Shown: positions 34,013-34,717, counted from the whole stretch's first letter. The stretch is DNA of 61,895 nucleotides, filler included, from Diploschistes diacapsis (GCA_023645945.1; 8 parts of 8 records of this genome joined end to end with filler, not necessarily neighbours in it), one strand, 5' to 3'. Numbers and translations: made by a program. The notes: generated from the sequence alone by a model not told the origin.

Positions 34013-34717
34013 TCAAACCTTAGGAGGCCGTCCCAAACAAACGAGCTCGCCCTGATCACACGAACAGAAGGTTGGAATGGGTCTTCCCTCACAGGTAGAA
34101 GACGGTCCTTCGTTCGTGCATACTTTGAACCCAGCAATGCATGTGCAATTTTCTGGTAGCAAAGTATCGCCACAAGGTTCTGTCCCTGGTGGAAGAAGAC
34201 AGCAGACGAGTGAACCATCATCATTTGTACCGCATTGAGTGGTTTCAGAAGGGCAATCCGAGAAGAGCTGACGTCTCGTGGAGCCGTCACCTCGCACCTT
34301 GCAACATTTCAACAATCCATTTGACTGAACACCGCAGGGATAATAGGTGCGAGGGCAGAACGGGTGTATGCTCCGCTTCCCTGGAATCTTGCAACACTTC
34401 GGTTTGCCGTTTGCCTTGGTACCGCAATTAAACCAGCCTTGCGGGCAGAATGGTAGAATTTCACGCTCTTCGAGGAAGTTCCCACCGTTGATTTGGTTTG
34501 GGGTCTGGCAACATTTTGGCGCTAGCTTTGTGCCACAATCTTGGAAGGTCTGGGTGAGCCGTGTTTCTCTCTGTGAAGACTTGATTCACTTACCATAGGT
34601 TGGGGGAACACAGAGAAAACCTGGGGCTCGAACATCTAATGAGCTCTCAGTTGGAGCAGGATGTCCATAGCAGCCGACTATCAAGACAGCTAGAAAGATT
34701 GGAAGGAAATGCTTCAT
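34013..34717 (-). CDS. Secreted multi-core cysteine-rich peptide precursor (216 aa)
   Basis: Exons 34594-34717 and 34013-34539 (intron GTAAGT..GCTCAC..AAG). Signal peptide, then four C-x6-CG-x6-8-CC units separated by LDVR, LEER, KR, RR, then two C-x8-CxC-x2-G-x3-C units. Confidence 0.85.

Follow-up and report, generated by a model that had tools for sequence, protein, structure and literature searches.

Fungal Kex2-processed repeat proteins (KEPs), such as the alpha-factor precursors, are defined by a signal peptide and repeats with KR, RR, or KK between them (PMC6339444), and the peptides derived from KEPs often begin with pyroglutamate formed from Gln (PMC9769878). Here, we describe a gene at positions 34013..34717, on the minus strand, of a 61,895-nucleotide stretch of DNA from Diploschistes diacapsis (GCA_023645945.1; parts of eight records joined end to end with filler), hereafter the window. 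Its predicted product carries a signal peptide and a short pro-segment, followed by four Cys-rich units (A1 to A4) and two modules of a second type (B1 and B2). From the sequence, we put the probability that this product is a Kex2-processed repeat protein with disulfide-rich cores at roughly 50%.

The predicted protein shares with the described KEPs (PMC6339444, PMC7329392) a signal peptide, tandem repeats, and Kex2-type sites that lie in register with the repeats. In addition, Gln follows some of these sites, and the gene stands alone, as most KEP genes do. A predicted signal peptide is present, as the KEP criteria ask, and the four A units compare with the minimum of at least three internal repeats. 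The cores themselves are different. While KEP cores are described as short and linear, with 8 to 14 residues in the ustiloxin type, 9 to 24 residues in pheromones, and mention of at most two Cys, the units described here have 28 to 37 residues and four Cys. Moreover, KEP repeats are near-identical, whereas the A-unit cores share 33 to 50% identity in protein and 40 to 57% in DNA, so that the duplications are old, and only two of the four sites are dibasic. Our literature search found no disulfide-rich multi-core fungal KEP, with the caveat that the supplementary KEP tables could hold Cys-rich repeats; the word disulfide occurs 0 times in the available text of PMC7329392 and PMC9769878, and that of PMC6339444 mentions only two-Cys pheromone-like cores.

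We also considered a ustiloxin-type locus for RiPPs, peptides made on the ribosome and modified after translation (ust-RiPS or dikaritins). No DUF3328/UstYa, tyrosinase, or other tailoring gene was found among 51 stop-to-stop open reading frames (ORFs) scanned with Pfam, where split exons could hide one, and this candidate was rejected for lack of a DUF3328 or tyrosinase neighbor. Of these 51, 24 had been picked from the entire window. The other 27 belong to the 54 ORFs with at least 85 residues between 24 and 45 kb; the remainder of the 54 either were already included in the 24 or overlapped an assigned gene.

Among other fungal secreted proteins, Ustilago maydis Rep1 and Hum3 contain Kex2-separated repeats of 31 to 55 residues, followed in Hum3 by a hydrophobin domain (PMC4617103). 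The repeat length is similar to that found here, and the repeats and hydrophobin domain of Hum3 resemble units A1 to A3 and the 12-Cys tail of our protein. However, there is no sequence relationship, and the repeats in Rep1 and Hum3 are of an amphipathic kind that this source does not call disulfide-rich. A hydrophobin tail was rejected, as the patterns C-C-CC and C-C-x-C-C differ from C-CC-C-C-CC-C and Pfam gave no match. Venturia inaequalis Cin1 (PMC4617103) is likewise composed of secreted imperfect tandem repeats with flexible linkers, but its repeats are helical bundles of 52 to 64 residues with no Kex2 sites described between them, whereas those considered here are short predicted beta-hairpins with basic linkers. 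The Kex2-processed pro-domain (K2PP) effectors SnTox3, ToxA, and SIX1/4/6 (PMC8528282) share a short LxxR-type pro-segment ahead of a Cys-rich secreted protein; they undergo a single cut that yields a single mature domain, whereas our protein has such sites repeatedly, between its repeats. A K2PP effector is recognized by a pro-segment that lies N-terminally, within the first half of the sequence, and has KR, RR, or LxxR at its end; the present protein has LDVR at residues 27 to 30.

Outside the fungi, the Impatiens Ib-AMP precursor and animal progranulin are polyproteins of Cys-rich peptides; the Ib-AMPs have four Cys, and granulins, which consist of stacked beta-hairpins, are set free from a precursor with several units. 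Plant cleavable hevein hololectins also consist of tandem disulfide-rich modules in which the linkers decide peptide release (PMC8512870, PMC9127739). These non-fungal precursors differ from ours in kingdom, in their proteases (asparaginyl endopeptidase, elastase), and in their Cys patterns. Neither granulin nor hevein gave a Pfam match at E ≤ 10, and granulin, EGF-like, and fibronectin type I domains were all rejected because nothing rose above the curated Pfam thresholds.

Gene model and module architecture

The two-exon model was obtained by reading the strand and splicing it by script. Exon 1 (34717-34594) starts with the ATG at 34717, whose frame runs for 41 codons up to a GTAAGT donor at 34593. 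A 54-nt phase 1 intron (34593-34540; GTAAGT...CTCAC...AAG) then interrupts unit A1, with a branch-like CTCAC lying 16 nt ahead of its acceptor, an AAG that ends at 34540, and exon 2 is coding over 34539-34016, ahead of the TGA stop (34015-34013). The spliced coding sequence of 651 nt encodes 216 residues with 25 Cys, one in the signal peptide and 24 in the mature part. All in-frame GT..AG pairs giving an open frame of more than 150 residues were enumerated. Fourteen combinations keep such a frame, two of them with the consensus GTAAGT donor, and of these two models the 54-nt version alone restores the C-x6-CG spacing of unit A1, which straddles the junction. The 54-nt splice is therefore internally checked by both the reading frame and the A1 Cys spacing.

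Because exon 2 has no Met in its frame and the start lies behind the intron, an ATG-based ORF track shows little of this gene. The gene is uncalled in the searched protein collections: no self-match is present in a collection of ~15 billion proteins, though the product of a neighboring gene is found there at 100% identity. HMMER, run exhaustively against 1.84 billion cluster representatives, retrieved two proteins, the true homologue P0003 and a bacterial look-alike, P0004. P0003 is a 366-residue protein from an ENA metagenome, the single member of its cluster, encoded on a 43.8-kb contig. We regard the gene as real because this independent metagenomic protein matches exon 2 at E 3.4e-20. In a pairwise BLASTP comparison (E 2e-21), 41 of 86 residues are identical over the last A-B-B module, and the earlier units match as well, more weakly but collinearly. 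The P0003 match begins exactly at the CG that opens exon 2 here, and the Cys expected seven residues upstream is missing, so the N terminus of P0003 looks like read-through into an unspliced intron. A tblastn comparison of the protein with the window gave no further copy, the best match other than the gene itself having an E of 2.8, and a scan of the window revealed no other Cys-rich ORF of the same kind.

Residues 1 to 18 (34664..34717) form the predicted signal peptide, which was judged by inspection, including the -3/-1 rule, and hydropathy only. It has a basic n-region, a hydrophobic core over residues 3 to 13, and C-Y-G ahead of the predicted cut, and the 9-residue Kyte-Doolittle means reach 3.2 over residues 3 to 9. 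The acidic pro-segment that follows (residues 19 to 30, 12 residues; 34628..34663) ends in LDVR, a weak extended Kex2 motif.

The four A units come next and the two B modules last. Every module holds four Cys, arranged as C-x6-CG-x6/8-CC in the A units and as C-x8-C-x-C-x6-C in the B modules. Unit A1 (residues 31-67; 34463..34627), split by the intron, ends in LEER, while unit A2 (residues 68-97; 34373..34462) ends in a dibasic KR (codons 34378-34373) and unit A3 (residues 98-131; 34271..34372) in a dibasic RR (codons 34276-34271). Unit A4 (residues 132-163; 34175..34270) begins with Gln directly after this RR, has no basic site downstream, and is part of the region best conserved with P0003. 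Modules B1 (residues 164-182; 34118..34174) and B2 (residues 191-209; 34037..34093) are followed by a C-terminal tail of seven residues, which together with the stop codon occupies 34013..34036. All of these features lie on the minus strand. The net charge of unit A1 is 0, or -1 once its basic end is trimmed, and units A2 and A3 each carry +5, or +3 after trimming. Unit A4 has a net charge of -5, and the C-terminal 85 residues (A-B-B, 12 Cys) have -7.

To assess the repeat, pairs of A units were aligned locally and compared with 1000 shuffles. The z scores were 15.4 for units 2 and 3, 8.3 for 2 and 4, 7.1 for 3 and 4, and 6.2 for 1 and 2, each observed score being reached by 0 of 1000 shuffles. 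Pairs 1-3 and 1-4 were not significant, with the observed score reached in 71 and 119 of 1000 shuffles, respectively. The internal repeat is statistically real.

Putative Kex2 sites and rival explanations

Arg residues at positions 30, 67, 97, and 131 precede the first Cys of the four A units (36, 73, 103, and 137) at a constant offset of six residues. The four sites read LDVR, LEER, KR, and RR, and the mature protein has no further KR, RR, or LxxR motif. Two of the three inter-unit junctions are dibasic, while at the remaining junction and at that of the pro-segment, the Arg belongs to an LxxR motif only; the two dibasic sites both sit in linkers and 0 lie inside modules. When the non-Cys residues were shuffled, a motif occurred in all four pre-unit linkers in 1 of 20,000 shuffles, a test that treats the four linkers as independent though the A units are duplicates of each other. 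A preliminary description, made from the sequence alone, had anticipated much of this: the 54-nt intron and intact 216-residue product, an ORF track showing only a part of the gene, the signal peptide with two module types, the first Cys at position 6 after an LxxR or dibasic site in all four A units, and the cationic units 2 and 3 beside an acidic unit 4 are all as found here. It had not recognized the family, and neither Pfam, NCBIfam, PDB sequence and profile searches, nor the ESM Atlas supplied one.

Kex2 needs Arg at P1, prefers Lys or Arg at P2 while tolerating Thr, Pro, Glu, and Ile, favors an aliphatic residue such as Leu at P4, and disfavors Asp at P3 (PMC8528282). Judged by these rules, KR97 and RR131 would be canonical sites, LEER plausible, and LDVR weak, and cuts after KR97 and RR131 are likely.

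The linkers of P0003 offer a comparison. This homologue has five full A units and four B modules, along with a degenerate hairpin of 2 Cys; the layout is mostly one of fused A-B (8-Cys) modules, with an A-B-B end as in the window protein. KR precedes three of its five A units and NR one more, a placement reached in 89 of 20,000 permutations. The distance from Arg to the first Cys varies from six to nine residues in P0003, and the flanking residues vary too, which would fit a conserved cut site better than a structural residue. Moreover, both proteins retain, ahead of their last module, a dibasic site with Q-L-F-S after it. Overall, P0003 appears to support cleavage in part.

Several observations weigh against Kex2 processing. 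Two of the four window sites, LDVR and LEER, are non-canonical and are not conserved in P0003. LDVR is probably a weak site, given that Asp is unfavorable at P3 and that Val does not belong to the residues favored at P2, and LEER has no P0003 counterpart because the junction between units 1 and 2 there, one of five, has no basic residue at all. Of the six KR dipeptides in P0003, three lie elsewhere, two in hairpin loops and one between B modules. Duplication of a unit could have brought its linker Arg along, in place of four separate selection events. Cutting at the dibasic sites alone would give three unlike fragments with 8, 4, and 12 Cys; at least three similar dibasic fragments, which the published KEP pipelines require (PMC6339444), are not obtained, and for this reason the protein falls outside those pipelines. 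The part best conserved with P0003 is the acidic C-terminal module and not the cationic units. Finally, the repeat of P0004 has no Kex2-like cut sites, so an A-type module can also serve as an uncut structural repeat.

P0004 is a 686-residue protein from a JGI metagenome with the source name pseudopilin PulG, retrieved at a library-wide HMMER E of 2.3e-6 and a pairwise BLASTP E of 2e-10. At residues ~330 to 560, it contains a tandem repeat of ~30 residues, C-P-x5-G-x-N-x-D-G-S-x2-C, whose Cys fall on Cys1 and Cys3 when it is aligned to the fungal A unit. The z scores against units A2 and A4 were 8.3 and 8.9, and 7.7 and 7.4 with Cys masked. P0004 matched no Pfam family, only a sub-threshold GspG N terminus in NCBIfam, and no relative in a genome contig scan. 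The likeness could reflect remote homology or convergence, and the A module may share ancestry with this bacterial pilin-associated repeat.

The strongest rival to Kex2 processing, less probable but to be taken seriously, is a modular secreted protein that is left uncleaved, or loses only its pro-segment, and acts as one chain, a string of hairpins. Candidate roles for such a chain are those of a protein of the cell wall or surface, a lectin or other binding protein, an inhibitor, or an effector, and the linker Arg and Lys would then be surface charge inherited by duplication. Tandem 4-Cys modules with even Cys numbers would fold equally well in one chain, the A unit resembles the presumably uncut repeat of P0004, and uncut fungal repeat effectors are known in Cin1 and Ecp6 (PMC4617103). 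However, exposed KR and RR in flexible linkers are standard Kex2 substrates when a protein transits the fungal Golgi, and harmful ones would be expected to be purged by selection. While two of the four window sites are non-canonical, one P0003 junction lacks any basic residue, and KR is also found inside P0003 modules, the pre-unit linkers hold both dibasic sites of the window protein and three of the six in P0003. The dibasic-then-Gln arrangement ahead of the last module is conserved, and the linker Arg is kept while its distance to Cys1 and its neighbors vary, neither of which favors an uncut chain. If the linkers are uncut, the protein would represent a new orphan family of modular secreted Cys-rich proteins, ordinary for fungi.

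Kex2 processing, as the preliminary description had framed it, survives in part. The permutation test, the KR or NR before four of five P0003 A units, and the conserved dibasic-QLFS speak for it, whereas the LxxR sites are unmatched in P0003 and KR occurs inside its modules. Homologues without basic sites between units were to count against the proposal, which is the case at one P0003 junction (one of five), the others having KR or NR. The uniform cocktail of 28- to 37-residue two-disulfide peptides that it had envisaged does not fit the mostly fused A-B 8-Cys modules of P0003, and its comparison with beta-defensins fails, as each unit has four Cys against a six-Cys motif and neither Pfam nor the PDB gave a match.

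Kex2-cut, disulfide-linked killer toxins exist, and in a third explanation the protein would be nicked by Kex2 into several chains held by inter-unit disulfides, comparable to yeast K1 killer toxin or insulin-type maturation, and not released as a peptide cocktail. The structure check by AlphaFold and Foldseek that the preliminary description had called for bears on this point. AlphaFold2 models of exon 2 (from a two-row alignment) and of the C-terminal 85 residues had predicted local distance difference test (pLDDT) scores of 43.9 and 56.0, respectively, and at this low confidence both contain one beta-hairpin per module but leave the disulfide pairing unreadable, so that inter-unit bonds have some room. 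Nevertheless, the two proteins contain A and B modules as single copies and differ in how many they have and in what order, which argues that each module is self-contained, and every module has exactly four Cys; we consider the nicked multi-chain protein improbable. Foldseek against the PDB with the 85-residue model returned nothing at E ≤ 0.001, and its matches (best E 1.7), generic disulfide-rich proteins, were dismissed as meaningless. A granulin-like fold was rejected on the same grounds, its Foldseek matches being non-significant (E 5.9-7.8).

It is very improbable that the gene is non-functional, whether silent, decaying, or mis-modeled at its 5' end, as the missing gene call in collections that include the neighboring product at 100% identity is explained by the intron and the Met-less exon 2. 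The frame of 651 nt is unbroken and none of the 24 mature Cys is out of register; splicing recovers this frame together with the Cys spacing of A1, and the diverged homologue P0003 keeps the scaffold.

Predicted maturation and possible function

Under Kex2 processing, the signal peptide would direct entry into the endoplasmic reticulum, where each 4-Cys module would oxidize internally, likely as a two-disulfide beta-hairpin mini-domain. We infer internal oxidation because the Cys count is even in every module, A and B are found alone as well as in differing combinations in the two family members, and the P0004 repeat keeps only Cys1 and Cys3. The last of these suggests 1-3/2-4 pairing in the fungal unit. 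That the modules are autonomous is supported by the different number and order of A and B in the window protein and P0003. In the late Golgi, Kex2 or another kexin would cleave the exposed linkers, most likely behind KR97 and RR131 and perhaps also behind LEER67 and LDVR30, and a Kex1-type carboxypeptidase would then trim the basic ends, as the motifs and their register suggest. The predicted secreted products are units A2 and A3 as cationic two-disulfide peptides of 28 to 32 residues (+3 each), a near-neutral unit A1, and an acidic 12-Cys A-B-B module of 85 residues, the N-terminal Gln of which may cyclize to pyroglutamate.

Among possible functions, we favor a role in extracellular defense or competition, though it is doubtful, with cationic hairpin peptides and an anionic partner that would neutralize them or act separately. 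Equally tentative is the idea that the protein is the first of an undescribed class, namely KEP-type polyproteins with folded two-disulfide beta-hairpin cores, in which one transcript would yield cationic peptides and an acidic 12-Cys partner in a host-defense-like manner. If the linkers are cut, KEPs would be extended from short linear or RiPP cores to folded, disulfide-stabilized mini-proteins, and the gene would provide a fungal counterpart of the plant and animal polyprotein precursors of Cys-rich peptides. Cys-rich peptides of this kind offer protease-stable scaffolds, which attract interest as antimicrobials and binders.

Family searches and genomic surroundings

With the whole protein, 0 Pfam families were returned at E ≤ 10. 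Pieces of it gave sub-threshold matches on the B modules only, to FnI_RECK (16.9-18.2 bits; cutoff, 30) and to the EGF-like FXa_inhibition (E 0.32, 11.6 bits; cutoff, 33.4). NCBIfam contained no family for it, sequence and profile searches of the PDB returned nothing, and two ESM Atlas searches with this protein gave no usable match. A word-indexed protein search with exon 2 yielded 13 candidates, 0 of them at E ≤ 0.01, and one with P0003 found only P0003 itself among 824 candidates. Two scans of metagenome DNA gave 58 and 25 pattern matches, of which 0 were confirmed by tblastn. The family would thus have two known members within the searched data, a count from which its real distribution can hardly be judged, as gene callers miss genes of this type. 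It may be hidden from protein databases through intron-split genes and a Met-less main exon, and may be widespread in a poorly sampled Pezizomycotina lineage. Through this blind spot of gene callers, similar families may be systematically missed in fungal and metagenomic assemblies.

Nothing unusual is found among the flanking genes, which encode an APP1 phosphatase, an MRJP/yellow-like protein, a conserved glycoside-hydrolase-like protein, and UvdE. In the ~5.5 kb around the gene (31950-34012 and 34718-38196), there is no Pfam-matching ORF of at least 85 residues, though small intron-split genes could hide there. The upstream neighbor at 30698-31601 (+) belongs to the MRJP/yellow family and spans at least two ORFs, presumably split by an intron. 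On the other side, 38197-39858 (+) is a long single-exon ORF of 553 residues from stop to stop, whose called product, P0005, has 507 residues and the source name glycoside hydrolase subgroup catalytic core. P0005 is conserved across Pezizomycotina: 693 proteins match it at E ≤ 1e-10. In Pfam, no family reached E ≤ 0.001. Its nearest named relatives are 62 to 67% identical and come mainly from Eurotiales (Rasamsonia emersonii, Paecilomyces) and a Cirrosporium metagenome-assembled genome, while ENA proteins reach 71 to 81%. These values place the source within the Pezizomycotina, with no closely related named species in the collection.

Farther away, an NPHP3_N (NACHT-associated) ORF followed by an ankyrin-repeat ORF at 58939-61408 (+) together resemble a fungal NOD-like receptor (NLR)-type protein, and a (GT)12 microsatellite lies at 20110-20133. 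The window also contains seven pairs of 44-N runs (4876-4975, 9847-9946, 14813-14912, 19776-19875, 24701-24800, 52065-52164, and 56982-57081). These are spaced ~4.9 to 5.0 kb apart within two groups, five at 4.9 to 24.8 kb and two at 52.1 and 57.0 kb, and look like masking or scaffolding rather than biology.

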